Both the position numbers and the translations under genes were made by a program. DNA of 42,288 nt from a virus. Its lineage: Duplodnaviria; Heunggongvirae; Uroviricota; Caudoviricetes. Under the pieces are notes generated by a model that was not told the DNA's origin, did not search any database, and worked only from the letters and a program-made list of their open reading frames with translations. Position 1 is the stretch's first letter. The number at the start of each line of letters is the position of its first letter. The stretch covers positions 1 through 42,288 of the IMG/VR virus record IMGVR_UViG_2778260993_000007. One strand, written 5' to 3'. Below are positions 4,148 through 38,927 of the stretch, piece after piece.

Positions 4148-4965
4148 ACGTACATATCCTGTTTACGTGCCCAGTCAGGGCGTTTAATAATTTCCACTCC
4201 GCCCCATTCATCGTTGATGCGGCATTCGTGATAGGTATTCAGATCCCGGCGGAACAGAGCGTGCCCGGCATCGACATCTGGCGCATCCAGCTCGAACACG
4301 CGTACCGGATACCGACCACAATCAATGCTTTCGCTCACGGCAAGAAAGAAAAAACCATGCGGCTGACCAGTAACCCTCATTGCGCCTTCGCGGTACATTG
4401 CGTCCTGCACGTGGTAGCGGAATTCCTCGATGTGGCGTGCAAAACGGTCCATATCTGCAACCTTTTTCACGTCGACGATCACGTTGTGCTCGTTCAGCCA
4501 TTTGTCTGGACGAATTCGGCACAACTCACCCGTCTCTTCATCGTTCCAGTACATTGATGCTTCGCAGTAACCAGGTGCTTCCAACATCCAGCGTGCCGCC
4601 GGGTGAGCCATTGCGCTATCACGCATCAGCTCTAGTTTCCGCCACTGCTCGGCATCAAGTACCGTAATCCCCATATCCGCCACATCACGAAGAAATGCCT
4701 CTTCGTCAGCTTTACCTTGTTTCGTCCGACGATCGAATTTCGGCGAAACAATGAAGCGTTTGTCGAACTCTCCAGGCTCCAGAAGAAGACAGTGCAATGC
4801 GGTTCCCATATCCAGTGCAGACTTTTTCTCTTCGTCTTCTGGTGCTGCCTGAACCCATTTAAGAAGCGCCGGATTCTTGGCAACCATGTCCAGTTGCGAC
4901 TTACTCACGCCGTCCCCGGCGTGGTAGTCTTCGTTGCTGATGTCGAAATAAATTCCCGGTTTCAT
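4144..4965 (-). CDS. YqaJ-like viral recombinase exonuclease (PD-(D/E)XK)
   Basis: 273 aa; typical partner gene upstream of recT; conserved acidic/lysine residues consistent with a PD-(D/E)XK nuclease. Confidence 0.75.
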   Translation of the reverse strand: MKPGIYFDISNEDYHAGDGVSKSQLDMVAKNPALLKWVQAAPEDEEKKSALDMGTALHCLLLEPGEFDKRFIVSPKFDRRTKQGKADEEAFLRDVADMGITVLDAEQWRKLELMRDSAMAHPAARWMLEAPGYCEASMYWNDEETGELCRIRPDKWLNEHNVIVDVKKVADMDRFARHIEEFRYHVQDAMYREGAMRVTGQPHGFFFLAVSESIDCGRYPVRVFELDAPDVDAGHALFRRDLNTYHECRINDEWGGVEIIKRPDWARKQDMYV

Positions 4966-5261
4966 GCCGCTTCCCTCTGCCCATCAATCCGATCCGCCAG
5001 ATCCCAGCGTGCGATAATTGCCATTGCCTCGCGCCGGTAGGCATCCATAAGTTCTTCGAACTCAGGGCTGTCTTTAGCTGCCTCCAGCACTTCCTGGCGA
5101 ACTCCTTTGCCTGTTACAGCGTCAAAAGTTGAGGCCAGTTGATGAAGCCGGATACTCTCGATCAGTTCAACTTGTCGGTCATATAGCTGTTCTGACAGGC
5201 GGTAGTCCTTGTCGAATGCCAGCATGATTTTTTGAAGATTTTTCTGCTGATTAACGTTCAT
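4962..5261 (-). CDS. Hypothetical early protein
   Basis: Start refined to MNVNQQ (GAGGG RBS 6 nt upstream); translationally coupled to exonuclease gene. Confidence 0.5.
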   Translation of the reverse strand: MNVNQQKNLQKIMLAFDKDYRLSEQLYDRQVELIESIRLHQLASTFDAVTGKGVRQEVLEAAKDSPEFEELMDAYRREAMAIIARWDLADRIDGQREAA

Positions 5262-5569: not shown

Positions 5570-6154
5570 TTATTGTTTGTTTTTTTCGTTCTGGTTGATG
5601 ACAAATTCAATGTAACTTTCGATCTTTGCCTTCTCTGTTTCAGGTAACAATGCGTAGCGCGAGCGGTCATAGTTGATAGTTGCAGGGTCATGCGGATGAA
5701 TCAGTAGTTCATATCCGTGACGCCCGAATGCAGATGCAACATTCTCCAGGGTGGAAATGGAAACGCTGACCTCATTGTTTAACAGGCGGCTTATTGTCAC
5801 CTGGGCGACGCCGGATGCGCGGTGAAGTTTTCCCTGAGTTGAAAGGTCGCGGCTTTCACTCATCCAGCGTTCCAGGTTGTGAGCTGCCAGCTGACCAATG
5901 TCGCTTGGTCCGACAGGCTGAAAACCTTCCTGAGAAAGCGAGCGATCGATATCAAGCCAGTTACGGGGTTTATTGGCGGCAGCTTCGATTTTTCGCGCAA
6001 CCTGGTCGCCGATAACCTTCTTGCCAAGAGCCCAGCGGTTTACCAGATTTGCCTGAGTTCCAAGTTTTTCTGCCATCCGCGTCTGAACACCATTGAATTC
6101 ACGGTCGATCAAGTCGTTGAGATTTTGCCTGCGGACGTCCTGGATACTTTTCAT
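5570..6154 (-). CDS. Prophage repressor (CI-like), tandem HTH, no S24 autopeptidase domain
   Basis: 194 aa; N-terminal XRE-type HTH (QTRMAEKLGTQANLVNRWALGKK) and a second HTH-like segment; divergent from Cro-like gene with operator repeats between; no Ala-Gly/Ser-Lys peptidase motifs seen. Confidence 0.7.
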   Translation of the reverse strand: MKSIQDVRRQNLNDLIDREFNGVQTRMAEKLGTQANLVNRWALGKKVIGDQVARKIEAAANKPRNWLDIDRSLSQEGFQPVGPSDIGQLAAHNLERWMSESRDLSTQGKLHRASGVAQVTISRLLNNEVSVSISTLENVASAFGRHGYELLIHPHDPATINYDRSRYALLPETEKAKIESYIEFVINQNEKNKQ

Positions 6155-15602: not shown

Positions 15603-15693
15603 GCGAACTGGAAGCAATGAGTTATGCCTTCCGTGGCTGTACTGGTTTACAGCATGAAGTCATCGCAATGGCGTCCTGCTGTAAAAAGGGCGG

Positions 15694-15767: not shown

Positions 15768-15844
15768 TGGCGTGGCATGCAGGATTCGAACCTGCGACCA
15801 ACCGCTTAGAAGGCGATTGCTCTGTCCAACTGAGCTAATGCCAC
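15768..15844 (-). tRNA. tRNA-Arg (anticodon UCU)
   Basis: 77-nt cloverleaf on minus strand: acceptor GTGGCAT/ATGCCAC, D-arm GCTC...GAGC, anticodon loop CTTCTAA, T-arm GCAGGTTCGAATCCTGC, 3' GCCA; resembles but is not identical to E. coli argU. Confidence 0.8.
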
Positions 15845-30913: not shown

Positions 30914-31441
30914 TCAATGGCTGTTTATGGCTTCTAAAGAATCTTCTGCACTTATCGGCAAAGCAATAGCATCCTTGTTAGATGTGCTATTGCTTTCCAG
31001 AACGATGGAAATCCAATCCTCTTGGTTTTTATTAATTGTGCTGACAGCCATGATAGCATTCAAATCGTTTTTATATATTTCTGATCGAATAAGACCTTTC
31101 CTGAATAATTTAGTTAAGCTTTCCGCTATCGACATCGCACGAATGCTAACTTTACTAAGCTCAATGACGTCACTACCTGCGACTTTAGCGTGTTGAGAAA
31201 GAGCCATCAAAGCTATATGCGAAAATGTTTCTTCTTTTGAAAAACCATTACTTAAAGACAGGAGTGATACACTAGCTCCGTATGGGGTGAGCTTATATCC
31301 TGATACATTCAATGCATGCTCTACAAAGATAAGAGCATCAGTTGTAGAAGCATGGATATTGTTACTTTTTTGTTTTTTCGCAATAAATAAAAAAACAAAA
31401 TTAATAATTACGATGCCGACAATGATTAAGAAAACTTCCAT
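30914..31441 (-). CDS. Membrane-anchored hypothetical protein (accessory)
   Basis: 175 aa; N-terminal TM helix MEVFLIIVGIVIINFVFLFIA; AT-rich; promoter, operator and first codons duplicated in inverted orientation at 35151..35200. Confidence 0.6.
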   Translation of the reverse strand: MEVFLIIVGIVIINFVFLFIAKKQKSNNIHASTTDALIFVEHALNVSGYKLTPYGASVSLLSLSNGFSKEETFSHIALMALSQHAKVAGSDVIELSKVSIRAMSIAESLTKLFRKGLIRSEIYKNDLNAIMAVSTINKNQEDWISIVLESNSTSNKDAIALPISAEDSLEAINSH

Positions 31442-31481
31442 TGCTTTTCCTCACAATAACATTACCTTAAAGGTAATATTT
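31432..31481. repeat. Inverted repeat IR-1, left copy
   Basis: About 50 bp (operator, promoter, RBS, ATGGAAGTTTTCT) is the reverse complement of 35151..35200. Confidence 0.7.
31462..31476. promoter_or_regulatory. Operator-like site upstream of membrane protein gene 30914..31441
   Basis: TTACC-TTAAA-GGTAA; part of 50-bp inverted repeat shared with 35151..35200. Confidence 0.5.
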
Positions 31482-31501
31482 TGTGTTAATGTAATCAAGT
31501 G

Positions 31502-31900
31502 TTAAGTGTAAACCTCCTGCTGTTCAGTGGTGATTTTACCCGGCAACACCTTTTTAGCTTTGCGTGGGTTAACTACATGGCCTTTAGTCCAGTAATCGTA
31601 GAGCACATCGTCACACTCTTCCTGATACTGGATTACCTTGTCGCGGATTTCAGGGCGTACTTTGTTTGGACTGATGCTGTTCAACCAAGCTGCCAATTTT
31701 CGTAAAGCCATACAAATCATGGCTTGCACCCCACCGGCAGAAGGTATGGTGATTTCCACCATACCCTTCGAGAAGCGTTGAGAAATCTTCTTATGTTGAG
31801 ATTTCCAGTCTAGCCCCATTCCCTCAACGATAGGTTTCATTGGGGTATACGGTTCACCGTTGTGATTGACAACATAAAGATCTGCGCCGTGGAATGGCAC
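31502..31900 (-). CDS. Putative antirepressor-like protein (P22-antirepressor N-terminal-like domain)
   Basis: 132 aa; segment GEPYTPMKPIVEGMGLDWKSQ...GGVQAM resembles N-terminal domains of phage antirepressors; weak RBS, start uncertain. Confidence 0.45.
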   Translation of the reverse strand: MPFHGADLYVVNHNGEPYTPMKPIVEGMGLDWKSQHKKISQRFSKGMVEITIPSAGGVQAMICMALRKLAAWLNSISPNKVRPEIRDKVIQYQEECDDVLYDYWTKGHVVNPRKAKKVLPGKITTEQQEVYT

Positions 31901-31994
31901 GTTGATAATAGTGACAAATTTGAAACATCGCTGGTTGTAAGCCAGCAGATGCTCGTTATTTTACATCGCGGTACAATTTCTCGCTGGTGGCTCT

Positions 31995-32328
31995 TTTACA
32001 CACCTTAACCAAATACGGTTGATTTTAATATTTCTAAGCGCTTATCATTACCTTTTCGGTAAATTTACATCGCATTCCTCTTGTGCCATAGTAATCGGGC
32101 ACTGGCAAAATCCAGTGCCGGGATTGGTCTCCCGGATTACTACAGAGGCACATATGCCGCATAAGCGGTTTTTTTATGTGTAAAGCGCACCTATTCTATG
32201 GTGGGCTGTGTGGGGGCACCGAAAGGTGCGCCGGGTCCTTTGTAGCCGGTAAGACCAACTCTGCACAGTTCACCACCATCTGATTGGTCTCAGCGGTGGT
32301 GATTAACCTAACTACAAAGGTGATCGCC
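31995..32328. repeat. Inverted repeat IR-2, left copy (antirepressor leader)
   Basis: About 330 bp, roughly 85-90 percent identical to the reverse complement of 34790..35125. Confidence 0.65.
32048..32062. promoter_or_regulatory. Operator-like site in leader of BRO-type antirepressor gene
   Basis: TTACC-TTTTC-GGTAA adjacent to putative -35 TTTACA. Confidence 0.5.
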
Positions 32329-33021
32329 ATGAATACCAAACCTTCCATCTTTTCCTTTGAGTCATCCTGCCAGATCCGTATGTTCATGATTGACGGAGAA
32401 CCTTGGTTTGTCACCAAAGATGTGTGCAATGCTTTGAATATTGATGTTACACAAGCGAGAAAACTTGATAAAAAAGGCTGGAACAAAAAGGGGCTGTATT
32501 CAATACAGACCCCTGGTGGAATACAAGAACTATCCATCGTTTCAGAATCAGGTCTCTACATCCTTATTCTGCGTTGCAAAGAGGCAATGACTGAGGGAAC
32601 GAGAGCATTCAGATTTCTTGAATGGGTTACAGGTGAGGTTCTTCCTCAGATCCGCCGCACCGGAAGTTACATTAAAAACTCGCTCCCGCAGGAAGAACGC
32701 ATAAAGATGGTTGCCGACCAGGTAGCCAACGCCACGGCGTCAGCAGTAATGCAGGCGATGAAGATAGAGAACAAAACCTACAGCGCCCCGCTGAAGCCCG
32801 GCTACCGCAGTTTGATTCACTCGCCGTCTGGTGTTCTCGGCCTGACGGAGAACTCACTGCTGATGAATCTGCTGAACCAGTTACAGGAAGACGGGCACGA
32901 CGTATCGGGCGCGGCGGCGGAGCTGACCACCATGTTCTGCTACATCGTCGGTGTGAGCAAATGCCTGCGTGATATCCAGACGCACGCGGAGTACATCAAC
33001 GACAAGGCAGGGTTCTTCTGA
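32329..33021 (+). CDS. Antirepressor, BRO-N domain plus shared C-terminal domain
   Basis: Start refined to MNTKPSIF (AAGGTGA RBS); BRO-N-like N-terminus (FMIDGEPWFVTKDVCNALN...GEVLPQIRRTGSY); C-terminal about 80 aa identical to C-terminus of 34133..34789. Confidence 0.7.
   Translation: MNTKPSIFSFESSCQIRMFMIDGEPWFVTKDVCNALNIDVTQARKLDKKGWNKKGLYSIQTPGGIQELSIVSESGLYILILRCKEAMTEGTRAFRFLEWVTGEVLPQIRRTGSYIKNSLPQEERIKMVADQVANATASAVMQAMKIENKTYSAPLKPGYRSLIHSPSGVLGLTENSLLMNLLNQLQEDGHDVSGAAAELTTMFCYIVGVSKCLRDIQTHAEYINDKAGFF
32770..33021. repeat. Inverted repeat IR-3, left copy (shared antirepressor C-domain coding region)
   Basis: About 250 bp nearly identical to reverse complement of 34133..34385; the few differences seen are synonymous. 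Confidence 0.7.
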
Positions 33022-33059
33022 CAGAACGGCGGCACAGGGATGTGCAAAACGGAACTATC

Positions 33060-33354: not shown

Positions 33355-33987
33355 TTAATGCAGTTTATCTTTGCTTATAACCAGTAGTCTGTGGGTATGC
33401 ACATCTTTATCACTGCCCCAACAGAAATCAGCCCACTGGCTATAGAAATCATCCCATGATGTCATGAAGCTAAGAGGTCTATCTTCTTCAGAGCCATCTG
33501 AAACGTATACATTATATCCTGGGGTGTTTATAGCCCAAGAAATCATTCTTTCCCAGAATCTTCTCCCATCGATTGTTTGTTGCTCATCAGATACAACGAT
33601 CGCATATTGCTCTAGGAAGAACTGAAAAAAAATCTGAGGCAAACCATGAACAGCACGGTCATGAATAACATTAGGCGTACGCCATACCATGATCTGCGTA
33701 CATGTTCTTTTGGCTTCGACGATATCTTCCCGAAAGATTAACTTAACCGCATACACCGTTTCTGGAGTATCGCTGGTAGTAATCATTCTGTAATGATCGC
33801 CATTACAAGATTTTACAAGGCGATAACCATAAGGTGTTGTGAATCCCGGAAGAACGAAATCAACCACACCTTTCGCTAAGTAGCTTTCGGTGTGACTAGT
33901 GTTCTTCTCAGACATGTTCAGTTTTCTATCGAAATCTGCTTCTGGGATAATGTATGGCATCGCTTTTCTTGTTGTATTTGTTCTCAT
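33355..33987 (-). CDS. Hypothetical protein at centre of antirepressor island
   Basis: 210 aa; own operator-like site upstream (about 34047..34061) and strong terminator directly after stop; no recognised domain. Confidence 0.55.
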   Translation of the reverse strand: MRTNTTRKAMPYIIPEADFDRKLNMSEKNTSHTESYLAKGVVDFVLPGFTTPYGYRLVKSCNGDHYRMITTSDTPETVYAVKLIFREDIVEAKRTCTQIMVWRTPNVIHDRAVHGLPQIFFQFFLEQYAIVVSDEQQTIDGRRFWERMISWAINTPGYNVYVSDGSEEDRPLSFMTSWDDFYSQWADFCWGSDKDVHTHRLLVISKDKLH

Positions 33988-34061: not shown

Positions 34062-34132
34062 TAGTACGCTATTCACCCCCAGTCTGCAATCTGTACAGAA
34101 TTATTTAAAGGCACGTCCCTGTGCCGCCGCCG

Positions 34133-34385
34133 TCAGAAGAACCCTGCCTTGTCGTTGATGTATTCCGCGTGCGTCTGGATATCACGCAGGCATTTGCTCA
34201 CACCAACGATGTAGCAAAACATGGTTGTCAGCTCCGCCGCCGCGCCCGATACATCGTGCCCGTCTTCCTGCAACTGGTTCAGCAAATTCATCAGCAGTGA
34301 GTTCTCCGTCAGGCCGAGAACACCAGACGGCGAATGAATCAGGCTACGGTAGCCGGGCTTCAGTGGGGCGCTGTATTCTTTTTTG
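34133..34385. repeat. Inverted repeat IR-3, right copy
   Basis: See left copy. Confidence 0.7.
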
Positions 34386-34789
34386 TCTTCCAGCTTGATC
34401 GCCTCCATAATGGCGGGCATGAAGCCTGACAAGACCTTCTCCACTTTTGTTTCTTGTTGTCTTAAACGTTTCTCGCATTCAATGAAGTAGCGTCGCACCT
34501 GGCGACCTTTTTCGTTACGCTCGACCATCGCCAGCTCTTTGGCTGTATCAAGGGTGAGGTGGTACTCTTTGCGGTTGTGGCCGCCTCTACCAGATGTTTG
34601 CTTTCCCAAATTGGAAAGCAAAATATAGTCTTGATTTTCAATGAATTCGTATTCTGATATGCGATTTGTAATCCATGCTGCAAACACCTTTTTAACACCT
34701 AAAAAAGCGTGCAGATCGCGGGCATTACAAAGTAGGGCTGTTTCGTTAGATATAGTGCCGTTGAATACGGGGATGAGTTGAGCGTTCAT
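34133..34789 (-). CDS. Antirepressor, AntA/AntB-type N-terminal domain plus shared C-terminal domain
   Basis: 218 aa; AntA-like N-terminus ([34 protein letters not shown]); C-terminal domain identical in protein sequence to that of 32329..33021. Confidence 0.7.
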
Positions 34790-35125
34790 GATGGCGTCTC
34801 CACTTAGCGAATTACATCACCACCGCTGAGACCAATCAGATGGTGGTGAACTGAACGGAGTTGGTCTTACCGGCCTAAGTGGTACCGGCGTCCTTTCGGA
34901 CCCCCATTCAGCCCACCATAATTCTGGCATGACTGTGCTATACGCATAAAAAAACCACGTCTGGCGTGGTATGCGCCACTTAGTAATCCGGGAGACCAAT
35001 CCCGGCACTGGATTTTGCCAGTGCCCGATTACTATGGCACAAGAGGAGTGCAATGTAAATTTACCGCAAAGGTAATGATAAACGCGAAGAAATATTAAAA
35101 TCAACCGTATTTGGTTGATTGCGTT
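34790..35125. repeat. Inverted repeat IR-2, right copy (antirepressor leader)
   Basis: See left copy; ends at the AntA-type gene start codon. Confidence 0.65.
35061..35075. promoter_or_regulatory. Operator-like site in leader of AntA-type antirepressor gene
   Basis: TTACC-GCAAA-GGTAA; inverted counterpart of the site at 32048. Confidence 0.5.
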
Positions 35126-35150
35126 TAACGCTTGATCACCTGAAAGCAAG

Positions 35151-35200
35151 ATATTACCTTTAAGGTAATGTTATTGTGAGGAAAAGCAATGGAAGTTTTC
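35151..35200. repeat. Inverted repeat IR-1, right copy
   Basis: Reverse complement of 31432..31481 by direct comparison. Confidence 0.7.
35154..35168. promoter_or_regulatory. Operator-like site upstream of membrane/zinc-ribbon gene 35189
   Basis: TTACC-TTTAA-GGTAA, 21 bp before start codon. Confidence 0.5.
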
Positions 35201-35917
35201 TGGATAGTTGTTGGTGTGGTTGCGGTGATTATTTACGTTATCAACCAGAACAAGACTAAGATCTCTGATCGTACGGTCGTTAATTATAACAAAACGATAA
35301 AGACCGAAGATGGGGAGATAACGATTAATCGTACACAGGTGATAGAACACACCTCTACTCAGTTTCAAAAAACTGGAGGTAATGCGCCTAATATTTCCGC
35401 ACCTCCTGCTTATGATAGTGCGGTAATCCAGACATATTATAAACAGCAGGAGTTAGCAAAAGAGAGGCAACTGATTCAGCCAAAGCCGTTTACAGCTGAG
35501 CTTCCACCTGGAGTGTCAATGCGTCCGGCATATCATGGAAGATTCCCTGGTGATGACATATCGTCTCAGTCATCTAAAAAAGCACCTCAGGCAGTATCAG
35601 AGCCAGCAAGAATACCTTCTGTATCGCCGCCAAAAGAAGAATCAGCTAACAGAGTTTCAAGTGGTAGCAAGCAGTGCTTGCGATGCAGAATAAACCTACC
35701 ATATGAAAAATTCAGGAAATCGTCAAAAAATCCAGATGGATTGACTAAGTGGTGTGCAAGGTGTCTCGATGGCCCAAAGAATACACGCCATATGAAGTGG
35801 TGCCCAATTTGTAATGTCCGCAGAAAACGAACAAGCTTTTACCCTAATAATCAAAATGCGGATGGCTTAATGGCATGGTGCAAAACGTGCTGGGACGAGC
35901 ACAAAGCGAAACGATAG
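35189..35917 (+). CDS. Membrane-anchored protein with tandem C-terminal zinc-ribbon repeats
   Basis: 242 aa; N-terminal TM helix MEVFWIVVGVVAVIIYVI; two about 35-aa repeats each with CxxC...DGL..WCxxC. Confidence 0.6.
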   Translation: MEVFWIVVGVVAVIIYVINQNKTKISDRTVVNYNKTIKTEDGEITINRTQVIEHTSTQFQKTGGNAPNISAPPAYDSAVIQTYYKQQELAKERQLIQPKPFTAELPPGVSMRPAYHGRFPGDDISSQSSKKAPQAVSEPARIPSVSPPKEESANRVSSGSKQCLRCRINLPYEKFRKSSKNPDGLTKWCARCLDGPKNTRHMKWCPICNVRRKRTSFYPNNQNADGLMAWCKTCWDEHKAKR

Positions 35918-35939
35918 GCCGCTCTTGCGGCCTTTAAAT

Positions 35940-36197
35940 TTACCGGGTTTGTTTTCGTAATTGTTCGGCACAATAGTCGAGATGTGTTTGCAGATCCCGC
36001 ATAGACATCTGTGAGCTGGTGACGTAGTTAATCAGTGCAGTCAGTTCGGCAAGTGGGCCATCGACATTAAATCCATCCTTATCGAGCTCCCGGAGTAATT
36101 TCATCAAGTGCGATCCCTCCACCAGTGATCTGACGCCTCCCGGCGTGTGAATCCTTTCGGTAAATCCGTCTTCCAGTGGATAGTGATACTGCTGCAT
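35940..36197 (-). CDS. Small protein homologous to the antirepressor C-terminal domain (candidate SOS-induced antirepressor)
   Basis: About 85 aa from ATG with GGAGAAG RBS (track ORF extends to 36215); aligns with the shared antirepressor C-domain (TPGGVRSLVEGSHLMKLLRELDKDGFNVDGPLAELT...MRDLQTHLDY); LexA box immediately upstream. Confidence 0.6.
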   Translation of the reverse strand: MQQYHYPLEDGFTERIHTPGGVRSLVEGSHLMKLLRELDKDGFNVDGPLAELTALINYVTSSQMSMRDLQTHLDYCAEQLRKQTR

Positions 36198-36218
36198 CTT
36201 ATCTTCTCCATGCAATAA

Positions 36219-36234
36219 CTGTATAAATATACAG
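36219..36234. promoter_or_regulatory. LexA (SOS) box
   Basis: aaCTGTataaatatACAGta: CTGT-N8-ACAG with AT-rich spacer matching the enterobacterial LexA consensus TACTGTATATATATACAGTA at most positions; about 22 bp upstream of start of minus-strand gene 35940..36197. Confidence 0.65.
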
Positions 36235-36273
36235 TATCAAATAATTTATTTGCTATCCAGCACGTTTTGCGAA

Positions 36274-36288
36274 TCACCTGAAAGGTAA
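36274..36288. promoter_or_regulatory. Operator-like site TCACC-TGAAA-GGTAA upstream of tail fiber gene
   Basis: 9/10 match; in divergent intergenic region between LexA-box gene and tail fiber gene. Confidence 0.45.
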
Positions 36289-36392
36289 TATCTGTTCGTA
36301 TTTATGGGTTGTCTATCCATATATGGTTTTTCAGGTAATAGAATAACCGGATATGCGGCGCAACGGGTGCTGCGACTATCTGGAGATTTAAC

Positions 36393-38927
36393 ATGACGGT
36401 CTCAACCGAAGTTGACCACAACGAATACACCGGTAACGGTGTTACAACGACATTCCCTTATACCTTCAGGATTTTCCAGAAATCTGATTTAGTAGTGCAG
36501 GTTGTTGACCTGAACGAGAACATCACAGAGCTGATTCTTGATACTGATTACATAGTCACTGGTGCGGGAGGGTATAACGGCGGCAATGTAATTCTGTCGA
36601 AGGCGTTGGTTAACGGTTATCAGATTTCTATATCAAGAGAGCTACCGGTTACGCAGGATACCGATCTGCGCAACCAGGGTAAGTTCTTCGCTGAGGTGCA
36701 TGAAGACGCATTCGATAAACTGACGATGCTGATACAGCAGGTTAGAAGTTGGTTCAGGTTGGCTCTGCGTAAACCATCATTTATTGCTAATTATTATGAT
36801 GCTTTGAACAATTATATTCGTAACCTGAGAGATCCCAGATTTCCGCAGGATGCGGCAACAAAAAATTACGTGGATACGCTTGCTGGTAGCAATCTAAGCA
36901 AAACTCTTCGCGTTCCTGAATCAATACCTTCCTTACCTGATGCTATTGAAAGAGCAAACAAGATGGTTGCTTTTGATAATGATGGTAATCCATTTGTCGT
37001 ATTACCACCATCTGGATCTGCCTCAGACGTTCTAATTGAATTAGCTAAACCTGATGGGTATAAGTTAATTGGTGGATTAGAAAACAGATTATATATATAT
37101 GATATAAGCGCACTAGACGGTGAGCGGAATAGTGATCAGCTTAATGCTATATTTTATAAGTATAAAGATACACCAATAAAAATATACTCAAGCGTGCCAC
37201 TAACTTTCACCATAGATAAAGAAACACATCTATATGGTGATTTTGATTTGAGTAATTGTACTTTCCACTTAACAAACGGAAAGGTTGTGTATAAAGATGA
37301 AAGGGATGATGATAGTTATATAAAGGAAGTTAATATATCAACATACCCATTGAACGAATTAACCTCAGTTTTTTCTTGTGTTGAGGATTTAACAGGGTGG
37401 GGTAATTCGCTCGTCAAAATAATAAGTCCAACAGAGGTTGATCTCTATAGGTTGCTTGGTGGTGTATTCACCCCAAGATATAAAGGTGAAGTGAACTTTA
37501 TGACTAAGTCAGGGGAATTGGCTTACAGTCTTAAAAATACTTACAACGACCCCGTAACTTGTACGTTATTTAAGCTACCAACTAAGCGTAATAAAATTGT
37601 ATTGCCGCGTTTCACTGGTCAATTTTCACGCTATGCTTTTGATATCCAACGTTCTTTAGTTGATGTTGAGGTTGTTTACTTTAATGACATGGGGATGACA
37701 GCTACAGATTCTAATATTTTTGGTAGCTCTACCACCTACGGAGTTAACTGGAGATTAACGAGTGCGGGTATTACGCAGACGGATAATAATTCTCGTTATA
37801 CCGTAGCTATGGAGTACACCCTTAAACATACTTTTATCGGCTGCGAAGTGGGTAAGGGGTGGAGGTCTATTGACGGCAACTATTGCAGGGATGTGGTTGT
37901 GAGAGACAGTAATCTTGATAGCTTCCACATGCACTATGGGTGCTCAAAGATTCTTGTTGATAATTGCCGGATACCTGGAGGCGTCATGGTTGGTACTGGG
38001 GCGTTCGACGAGGCCACACAGATCATCAATTCTCACATAGGGCCGTTTGGAGTACGTACGGATTACGGTGAACATAAAGGTGATTTCATAGTCCGTGGGG
38101 GATCCGTTCGTATTCCAGAGGGTTCATCCGGTTTGGTGGATATGATTTTGTGTCGTCCAGACAATGTTATCGCGTCTGGGAATCCTGTTCAGCCGCGCAC
38201 TTTACATCTTCCGAAGAATATAATTGTACAGACGAATATATACTGGCCTTCTGAGGTAACACTCAATATTTTATCATTTAAAAATAACTTTAAAACACAG
38301 CCATCACCTTTGCGTGACTTTAAAATGCCGTCATTGATAGATTTTACTGGTAGCACTTTTAATGGTAAAGCCGCAAGATTTGAGTTGGCAATTTCATATC
38401 ATGATGCATCTACAAGAGATATTCCTGTAATTAAATTGACTCCAGCTAAATCAACTGGATGTAAAGTTGTATGTTATGTTGGATACCTGGATGAGTATGC
38501 ATCATGCCTTTATGGTCTTGAGAGCAATATGGATATTGCATATATGAATATCACATCAGGAATGAATAGGAGTTACATCAAGCATGATGGTGGTGTATTA
38601 CGTAGGTTTGTAGGCTATTCTGGTGGAAACACATATATGCTTGGCAGTGTTTATTTTGACAAAATGGCCATAGATTGGGATGTGAGTAACAACCTTGTTT
38701 CAGGATTTATGTCAGTGTCTGACTGTCTTATAGATGGTTCGAGAGCTAAGGGATCATCTTCATCTAAGCCGATAGTAAATACGTATGTACATAGGTCGGC
38801 AAATAATATATGTCATGAGATAGTGGCAACTGACTCAAGGGATGTTGTCGATAAAAAATATGCCCTTTGCAGTAGAGAGGGAACCGCAGGGAACTTCTCA
38901 ACAGGTGAGATACCTATAACATTTTAA
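36393..38927 (+). CDS. Tail fiber / tailspike protein (T7 gp17-like N-terminal adaptor, divergent C-terminal receptor-binding region)
   Basis: 844 aa; N-terminus (EVDHNEYTGNGVTTTFPYTF) resembles podovirus tail-fiber N-terminal domain; C-terminal two-thirds AT-rich. Confidence 0.75.
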   Translation: MTVSTEVDHNEYTGNGVTTTFPYTFRIFQKSDLVVQVVDLNENITELILDTDYIVTGAGGYNGGNVILSKALVNGYQISISRELPVTQDTDLRNQGKFFAEVHEDAFDKLTMLIQQVRSWFRLALRKPSFIANYYDALNNYIRNLRDPRFPQDAATKNYVDTLAGSNLSKTLRVPESIPSLPDAIERANKMVAFDNDGNPFVVLPPSGSASDVLIELAKPDGYKLIGGLENRLYIYDISALDGERNSDQLNAIFYKYKDTPIKIYSSVPLTFTIDKETHLYGDFDLSNCTFHLTNGKVVYKDERDDDSYIKEVNISTYPLNELTSVFSCVEDLTGWGNSLVKIISPTEVDLYRLLGGVFTPRYKGEVNFMTKSGELAYSLKNTYNDPVTCTLFKLPTKRNKIVLPRFTGQFSRYAFDIQRSLVDVEVVYFNDMGMTATDSNIFGSSTTYGVNWRLTSAGITQTDNNSRYTVAMEYTLKHTFIGCEVGKGWRSIDGNYCRDVVVRDSNLDSFHMHYGCSKILVDNCRIPGGVMVGTGAFDEATQIINSHIGPFGVRTDYGEHKGDFIVRGGSVRIPEGSSGLVDMILCRPDNVIASGNPVQPRTLHLPKNIIVQTNIYWPSEVTLNILSFKNNFKTQPSPLRDFKMPSLIDFTGSTFNGKAARFELAISYHDASTRDIPVIKLTPAKSTGCKVVCYVGYLDEYASCLYGLESNMDIAYMNITSGMNRSYIKHDGGVLRRFVGYSGGNTYMLGSVYFDKMAIDWDVSNNLVSGFMSVSDCLIDGSRAKGSSSSKPIVNTYVHRSANNICHEIVATDSRDVVDKKYALCSREGTAGNFSTGEIPITF

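Follow-up and report, generated by a model that had tools for sequence, protein, structure and literature searches.

How a prophage could leave the lysogenic state after damage to the DNA of its host, when its repressor carries no recognizable self-cleaving domain, is the question raised by a small gene that lies behind a LexA box and diverges from the tailspike gene. The window, that is, the whole stretch of 42,288 bp analyzed here, is a prophage of the epsilon15/phiV10 type (Uetakevirus) with an integrase gene at its start. Its region 35700-36500 showed 98% identity to Escherichia phage TL-2011b, and the part from the small gene across the intergenic region into the beginning of the tailspike gene showed between 93 and 96% identity to phiV10 and its relatives; TL-2011b, phiV10 and their relatives all belong to Uetakevirus, the epsilon15-like podophages. 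The features of the locus are collected in Table 1. Very probably the small gene is an ant gene of the type found in phage SPC32H, whose LexA-controlled antirepressor (Ant) would inactivate a non-cleavable repressor (Rep). The LexA-Ant-Rep switch of epsilon15-like phages is itself already known, from genetics in 2013 and from structure in 2016. What we computed for this prophage is how strong and how well conserved the box is, its uniqueness in the window, the orthology of Ant and Rep, the synteny with SPC32H and the lack of an S24 domain in Rep.

Table 1. Features of the proposed SOS switch and of the large antirepressor genes in the window (positions are those of the whole stretch; residue numbers refer to the encoded proteins).
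Feature	Position	Strand	Details and basis
rep, 194-aa putatively non-cleavable repressor, presumed target of Ant	5570..6154	-	PDB match, Pfam
isrK-like RNA (32099-32175) and C4 antisense RNA (32194-32280), predicted	32099..32280	+	leader of the BRO-N gene; Rfam
BRO-N large antirepressor gene	32329..33021	+	Pfam Bro-N, E=1.8e-13; C-terminal Ant fold at residues ~149-230, encoded at ~32773-33018
AntA-type large antirepressor gene	34133..34789	-	Pfam AntA at residues 22-92; C-terminal Ant fold at residues ~137-218, encoded at ~34136-34381
isrK-like RNA (35024..34948) and C4 antisense RNA (34923..34839), predicted	34839..35024	-	leader of the AntA gene; Rfam
G+C-rich hairpin	35916..35933		between the convergent genes 35189..35917 (+) and ant (-); terminator scan
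ant, 85-aa stand-alone antirepressor, orthologue of SPC32H Ant	35940..36197	-	PDB match, synteny
Ribosome binding site GGAG	36206..36209	-	8 nt from the ATG; no variation among the aligned relatives
LexA (SOS) box AACTGTATAAATATACAGTA; the ant strand reads TACTGTATATTTATACAGTT	36217..36236		consensus search, matrix score, conservation
Putative ant promoter	36231..36259	-	-35 TGGATA (36259..36254), 17-nt spacer, extended -10 TG (36239-36238), -10 TACTGT (36236..36231); sequence reading and invariant columns
Operator-like palindrome ATCACCTGAAAGGTAAT (family ATTACC-N5-GGTAAT)	36273..36289		ant-tailspike intergenic region
Tailspike gene	36393..38927	+	divergent from ant

The sequence-only reading had placed here a minus-strand gene of about 85 codons with a good ribosome binding site, and both points agree with what was found. 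A mechanical ORF call extends the gene to a TTG codon (35940..36215, 91 aa), whereas the ATG at 36197 gives a product of 85 aa, in agreement with the annotated 86-aa ant of SPC32H and with the 86-residue chain that was crystallised. A search of PDB sequences with the window Ant returned one match, chain E of entry 5D50 ('Anti-repressor protein', E=5.5e-47), in which residues 3-85 of the 86 align to residues 2-84 of the query with 73 identities in 83 positions (88%). Based on tblastn searches of phage genomes, ant is present in 35 records, all of them epsilon15-like. The gene at the syntenic position in KC911856.1 is annotated 'ant: anti-repressor protein', the label that ant bears in the SPC32H and SPC32N records, and among the matches listed in a large protein search there were only close Ant orthologues of 85-86 aa. 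No Pfam or NCBIfam model was found for the window Ant, and Pfam recognized in it no N-terminal domain of the BRO-N, AntA or P22_AR_N kind; in PHROGs it matches phrog_450, listed as of 'unknown function'. A Pfam match to DUF724 was taken as spurious, since it reached 18 bits against a cut-off of 38.4. The hairpin downstream of ant is likely a terminator shared with the convergent gene; it shows a good T-run on the plus strand only, and its role in ending ant transcription is putative.

A search with the 20-nt LexA consensus showed that the box upstream of ant is the sole site with three or fewer mismatches in the 42-kb window; it has two, and 0.01 such sites would be expected by chance. On a symmetrised position weight matrix, approximate only, that was built from a set of 20 SOS boxes of E. 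coli, the box scored 27.3 bits, above all of the training boxes (maximum 26.2), with 11.1 bits for the next-best site of the window and 19.1 bits for the best of 200 shuffles. Given the expected number of sites and this distance from the shuffled sequences, a chance origin of the box was rejected. The core CTGT-N8-ACAG occurs three times in the window, and the two matches besides the ant box (at 15637 and 20178) have G+C-rich spacers and either score no more than 10.3 bits on the same matrix or are unranked; the matrix scan found no second LexA box in the window. The single strong box proposed from the letters alone, for which scoring on a LexA matrix had been suggested as a check, is thus borne out in both strength and uniqueness. 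Its position upstream of the gene also stands; the distance to the gene start, given there as about 22 bp, is 19 nt from the 20-mer to the ATG and 21 nt from the 16-mer core.

On the ant strand the first six bases of the box read TACTGT and could serve as the -10 hexamer of the ant promoter. The motifs CTGGA-A and TG-n-TA, which cover parts of the putative -35 and extended -10 elements, are invariant columns across the 10 aligned relatives, and the placement of the hexamers in Table 1 was read from this pattern and should be taken as probable. The hexamers are weak matches to the consensus and were not reported by the automatic promoter scan. The only minus-strand site that the scan gave, TAGACA/GATATT at 36315..36287, upstream of the operator-like palindrome, was discarded as a second ant promoter because SPC32H and epsilon15 do not share it.

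The ant-tailspike intergenic region was aligned among 10 phages of E. coli, Salmonella, Enterobacter and Klebsiella. CTGT-N8-ACAG is present at the orthologous position in seven of the ten, which are all the non-Klebsiella phages and represent three host genera; in the three Klebsiella phages the left half-site reads ATGT, and the LexA matrix gives them 18.1 bits. There is also a natural variant of the box. In the 206-nt aligned stretch between ant and the tailspike gene, SPC32H and SPC32N show one difference, a C-to-A change in the ACAG half-site of the orthologous box, with which the matrix score drops from 24.9 to 18.4 bits. Kim and Ryu reportedly found in 2013 that the genomes of SPC32H and SPC32N differ by only two nucleotides and that the change in the LexA box makes Ant constitutive and drives SPC32N into the lytic cycle. 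The difference seen here matches this reported result, and we counted it for the LexA-Ant explanation.

The presumed target of Ant matched chain A of 5D50 ('Repressor') over residues 1-190 (E=4e-42) and also the C-terminal fragment in entry 5D4Z. Pfam assigned HTH_3 to residues 106-147 and gave a weak HTH-like match at residues 21-61; no S24 peptidase domain was found in the protein by Pfam, and NCBIfam returned nothing relevant. The C-terminal S24 peptidase of cleavable repressors of the LexA/lambda CI type is thus absent from a protein in which Pfam sees HTH families only. The claim that this repressor has helix-turn-helix domains and no S24 domain had been made from the sequence, with an S24 match in a profile search named as the result that would count against an SOS-responsive antirepressor, and the profile searches agree with that claim. 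As it lacks the autopeptidase domain, Rep would not be cleavable with the help of RecA. Rep does not differ from its counterparts in phiV10 and ZX5 (100% identity), and it shares 78% identity with that of Tyrion and 41.8% with SPC32H Rep; 70 positions are invariant across five Reps, including NLVNRW in the N-terminal HTH-like region. The homologues of Ant and Rep are distributed over nearly identical sets of phage records (35 and 37, respectively).

Palindromes of the form ATTACC-N5-GGTAAT with up to two mismatches occur at 17 sites in the window, against 1.4 expected, and at 18 sites in epsilon15, against 1.25 expected, mostly near ORF starts or between ORFs. The motif located between ant and the tailspike gene is kept in 10 of 10 relatives and lies about 15 bp upstream of the putative ant -35 hexamer. 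The epsilon15 record annotates eight palindromes as 'repressor / lysogeny', the ant-tailspike one among them, and we infer that the palindromes of this family are Rep operators. Since Rep is only 41.8% identical to its SPC32H counterpart while Ant is 88% identical, conservation of the interface between the two proteins is an assumption. The conserved helix and the conserved palindrome suggest that the diverged Reps read the same operator, which makes a conserved Ant-Rep interface plausible in the E. coli phage as well. This gap between the conservation of Ant and that of Rep (88 and 42%) is not described in the secondary literature covered; it may be new, or it may already be treated in the primary SPC32H papers.

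Every sequence-testable feature of the Ant-Rep module of SPC32H, a Salmonella Uetakevirus (Kim & Ryu 2013, J Virol 87:11775; Kim et al. 2016, PNAS 113:E2480; PDB 5D50 and 5D4Z), was found in the window. The ant gene of SPC32H (SPC32H_020) diverges from its tailspike gene (SPC32H_021) in the same arrangement, rep is annotated in its GenBank record, a LexA box is located at the orthologous position and the operator-type palindrome is identical in type. The window differs from SPC32H in its host, E. coli, in a Rep that is only 42% identical and in two additional large Ant-fold antirepressors behind isrK/C4 leaders, which SPC32H does not have. The E. coli ant, a putative antirepressor gene, is moreover annotated as hypothetical.

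A similar logic operates in coliphage 186, where Tum, a small LexA-repressed protein, inactivates a non-cleavable repressor. The annotated p95-tum promoter has its -10 TACTGT at the start of the LexA box, as proposed here for the window ant, and the sequence of the 186 box, TACTGTATGTTTATACAGTA, recurs unchanged as the ant box of epsilon15. However, Tum has 146 aa, its gene yields nested truncated products and the phage belongs to the Peduoviridae, unlike that of the window. A single BLASTP comparison between Ant and Tum gave no significant similarity (E=0.077, 47 aa, 30% identity), so membership of Ant in the Tum family was rejected. The likeness of the tum and ant promoters is a case of shared mechanism, not of shared protein ancestry. 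The parallel with Tum and the Gifsy antirepressors that had been drawn in the sequence-only reading is one of mechanism only. The antirepressors of Gifsy-1, Gifsy-3 and Fels-2 are controlled by LexA and act on repressors that are not cleaved with RecA (Lemire et al. 2011, PMC3121763; review PMC7380047). Their likeness to Ant, again one of mechanism, was drawn from these descriptions. Kim and Ryu in 2013 reportedly found Ant to be distinct in structure from the Gifsy/Fels antirepressors.

These elements could be assembled into the following switch. Since the LexA box sits over the putative -10 element, its left half doubling as the TACTGT hexamer, LexA of the host bound to the box would keep ant off in the lysogen. 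After DNA damage RecA would become active, LexA would cleave itself and ant would be transcribed. The 85-aa Ant would then bind Rep as a tetramer; the Rep tetramer that binds DNA would come apart into dimers, which stay on Ant, and Rep would in this way be inactivated with no cleavage. With Rep off its ATTACC-N5-GGTAAT-type operators, the lytic genes would be turned on. The control by LexA, the binding of Ant to Rep and the stoichiometry of the complex are taken from the SPC32H literature, and by analogy the E. coli pair would behave in the same manner. In that literature, LexA-controlled Ant inhibits the repressor by protein-protein contact (Kim & Ryu 2013, cited in the review PMC7380047), an Ant tetramer, to which two Rep dimers bind, disrupts the form of Rep that binds DNA, itself a tetramer (PMC9638917), and the LexA-Ant-Rep logic is also described in bioRxiv 10.1101/2025.11.27.690993. 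Phage ZX5 was induced by mitomycin C to 10^9 PFU (PMC9782041); since its Rep is identical to that of the window, which has no other LexA box, this lends indirect support to a behaviour of the SPC32H type. The proposal, made from the sequence, that the small protein is the SOS-responsive antirepressor of a non-cleavable repressor is thus supported by its 88% identity to SPC32H Ant and by the homology, over the full length, between Rep and its SPC32H counterpart.

Two further proteins of the window share a fold with the small Ant. The alignment of the latter to the C-termini of a BRO-type and an AntA-type antirepressor had been noticed from the sequence and was recovered, with 32 of 72 residues identical in the BRO-N protein and 43% identity over 74 aa in residues 137-210 of the AntA protein (E=6e-17). 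The BRO-N protein matches phrog_450 over its residues 147-228 (E=3.2e-37), and a comparison of the AntA C-terminus with 5D50 chain E gave E=4.6e-14 over Ant residues 3-79. As the whole of the 86-aa Ant corresponds to this domain, the data fit the earlier suggestion that the shared C-terminal domain is the module for repressor binding or oligomerisation. The C-terminal regions of the two large proteins, of about 80 aa, are essentially identical; the DNA that encodes them forms an inverted repeat of 257 nt with 93% complementarity. An alignment of six small Ants with the fused domain has 22 invariant positions. Among the phage records, the fused domain is confined to Tyrion and to the E. coli and Klebsiella members of the group, and the Salmonella phages carry no form but the small Ant. 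ORF 33355..33987 (minus strand) was rejected as the BRO-type gene because it shows neither a Pfam match nor similarity to Ant.

The leaders of both large genes match Rfam families RF01394 and RF01695 above the gathering score, which is 45 for RF01695: they reach 74.7 and 74 bits, respectively, in front of the BRO-N gene and 67.7 and 61.2 bits in front of the AntA gene, where the leader lies within the inverted repeats I2, I4 and I5. With an isrK and a C4 match before each large antirepressor gene, the arrangement recalls the immI region of P1 and P7 (C4 antisense RNA-icd-ant), whose control these leaders presumably resemble. In Gifsy-1, isrK precedes anrP in an isrK-orf45-anrP locus (PMC4825925). 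The likeness to P1 immI and to Gifsy-1 isrK concerns the large paralogues only and not the small LexA-controlled ant; in the window the C-terminal domain is the Ant fold and the RNAs are predicted ones. As for function, ORF4 of ZX5 is a BRO-N protein whose C-terminal domain is 98.8% identical to that of the window, and its overexpression reduced lysogeny, with a prophage titre about 1000-fold lower (PMC9782041). A text search of the same paper found no occurrence of 'LexA' or 'SPC32H', and the small ant is not mentioned there.

It is tempting, though we would put the chance at somewhat under one half, to see in the Ant fold a portable Rep-binding module used three times under two independent controls. 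Tentatively, and with our belief again falling a little short of even, the fold would serve once alone under LexA as the trigger for DNA damage and twice fused behind BRO-N or AntA under isrK/C4 leaders and Rep-type operators. If this were true, the fused forms with RNA leaders would act as a trigger on infection or superinfection or in a feed-forward manner, one non-cleavable repressor would integrate several induction signals through one surface, and the generic N-terminal antirepressor domains would have a role other than repressor binding. In the secondary literature covered we found no description of an Ant fold that serves three times in this way, under LexA in one case and RNA leaders in the others; it may be new, although the primary SPC32H papers may already note it.

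The presence of two further proteins with an Ant domain, together with the anti-lysogeny effect of ZX5 ORF4 on overexpression, implies that the small Ant need not be the sole trigger. That it is not even the main inducer, the BRO-N and AntA fusions being the effective antirepressors and the LexA-controlled Ant a modulator through mixed oligomers or competition for Rep, we regard as improbable. This would account for three Ant-fold domains in one phage and for the lowered lysogeny caused by a BRO-N protein with this very C-terminal domain (PMC9782041); it also finds a parallel in the 186 record, where truncated forms of Tum are said to 'modulate SOS induction', and it is favoured by the strong divergence of Rep from SPC32H Rep. 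Yet SPC32H and epsilon15 have the small Ant only, with no large paralogue, and in SPC32H Ant is sufficient. The small Ant is, besides, the only gene of the window with a LexA box, and relatives are inducible by mitomycin C. Mixed tetramers are made less likely by the low identity, only 43%, between the small domain and the large ones.

The intergenic position of the box raises another alternative, very improbable in our view, namely that LexA mainly controls the divergent tailspike gene or some other transcript and that the proximity of the box to the small ORF is incidental. The two genes do share the 195-bp region in which the box is located, but it lies 156 nt from the tailspike ATG against 19 nt from that of ant, and on the ant strand the conserved element TG-n-TACTGT runs into it. 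The literature, moreover, associates the mutation of the SPC32N box with ant, and the 186 tum promoter is of identical architecture. There is also hardly any likelihood that DNA damage leads directly to the inactivation of Rep, through cleavage or a RecA-dependent route that domain searches do not see, with Ant dispensable. The absence of an S24 domain in both Pfam and NCBIfam and the full-length homology to SPC32H Rep, which Kim and Ryu in 2013 reportedly found not to be cleaved during the SOS response, argue against such a route, for which the lambda-type repressors offer a general precedent only.

An Ant of the SPC32H type that relieves repression by Rep under the control of LexA therefore remains our preferred explanation of this locus. 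The modular reuse of the Ant fold is a modest lead on which part of the BRO-N and AntA antirepressors contacts the repressor. The identification of ant is also of value for annotation: the gene with its upstream region is carried by 531 of 5,426 complete E. coli genomes (about 10%), but it appears as 'hypothetical protein' in every E. coli record listed as well as in phiV10, TL-2011b and epsilon15. Its recognition would explain the response to antibiotics that damage DNA in these prophages, which are common in E. coli and are present also in O157 and O103 EHEC backgrounds.

The two large antirepressor genes of the window lie in cassettes, named for the BRO-N (31416-33022) and AntA (34132-35214) domains, that form an imperfect large inverted repeat. 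Five arm pairs with a complementarity of 80-96% were recognized, and the two cassettes have common leaders and C-terminal domains but different N-terminal domains. The arms are separated by a 1.1-kb segment containing the phrog_1349 ORF, and recombination between them could invert this segment. Upstream of each large antirepressor gene, isrK-like RNA and C4 antisense RNA elements were identified, all four Rfam matches scoring above the gathering score. This arrangement suggests that the large antirepressor genes would be under RNA control of the P1 immI type or the Gifsy-1 isrK type, a mechanism distinct from the regulation of the small ant gene by LexA.

Two further ORFs were noted in this part of the window. 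One encodes only the N-terminal domain of the P22 antirepressor, is divergently oriented relative to the BRO-N cassette and would be the fourth antirepressor-related gene of the 5-kb accessory region, which Salmonella phage SPC32H lacks. The other is flanked by the AntA cassette and ant and encodes a product with Cys-rich repeats at the C-terminus, which show weak PHROGs matches to endonuclease VII, Lar-like and HNH proteins. Judged by eye, the N-terminus of this product is hydrophobic. Its counterpart in Escherichia phage TL-2011b is annotated as a misc_feature and not as a CDS, and this region is absent from phiV10. Elsewhere in the window, a tRNA gene was found embedded among plus-strand ORFs.

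Coordinates of features in the window
Feature	Position	Strand	Remarks
isrK-like RNA and C4 antisense RNA	32099-32280	+	Upstream of BRO-N antirepressor gene; Rfam
isrK-like RNA and C4 antisense RNA	34839-35024	-	Upstream of AntA antirepressor gene; Rfam
ORF, phrog_1349	33355-33987		Within the 1.1-kb segment separating the inverted-repeat arms
P22_AR_N-only ORF, 132 aa	31502-31900	-	P22 antirepressor N-terminal domain, E=9.7e-45
ORF, 242 aa	35189-35917	+	Between AntA cassette and ant
tRNA gene	15771-15844	-	Rfam, 70 bits
ATTACC-N5-GGTAAT sites (examples)	5435, 5497, 6209, 8516, 8578, 16165, 31461, 32047, 34046, 35060, 35153, 36273, 39082

Related phages differ in these genes. In phiV10 (4571-5250) the Ant-like C-terminal domain was matched as two pieces, over PhiV10p23, annotated as a "putative anti-immunity protein", and the small ORF PhiV10p22. 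The BRO-N antirepressor gene of this phage appears to be split, and the two-piece match suggests a frameshift. Concerning the Klebsiella relatives (L007, L008 and L009), the left half-site of their LexA box (about 1460-1500) has ATGT in place of CTGT, and a score of 18 bits was obtained for this box on a matrix built from 20 E. coli SOS boxes. Their small Ant (about 1495-1755) carries a 12-residue motif identical to that of the large antirepressors of the window and not to that of its small Ant, which hints at exchange between stand-alone and fused Ant copies.

A search for the palindrome ATTACC-N5-GGTAAT, allowing up to two mismatches, located 17 sites in the window versus 1.4 expected, mostly intergenic or near ORF starts. 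The epsilon15 genome holds 18 sites of this motif, eight of which are labelled "repressor / lysogeny" in its record. The palindrome looks like a putative genome-wide operator of the repressor Rep.

The region comprising ant and its LexA box was found in 531 of 5,426 complete E. coli genomes. Among the matches listed, all E. coli records annotate ant as "hypothetical protein", and neither Pfam nor NCBIfam holds a model for Ant, which represents an annotation gap in spite of the solved structure of the protein. Ant (35940-36197) is far more conserved with respect to SPC32H than its presumed target Rep (5570-6154), the identities being 88% and 42%, respectively. This disparity raises the question of whether a single Ant can act on diverged Rep proteins; if so, cross-talk between prophages would become possible.
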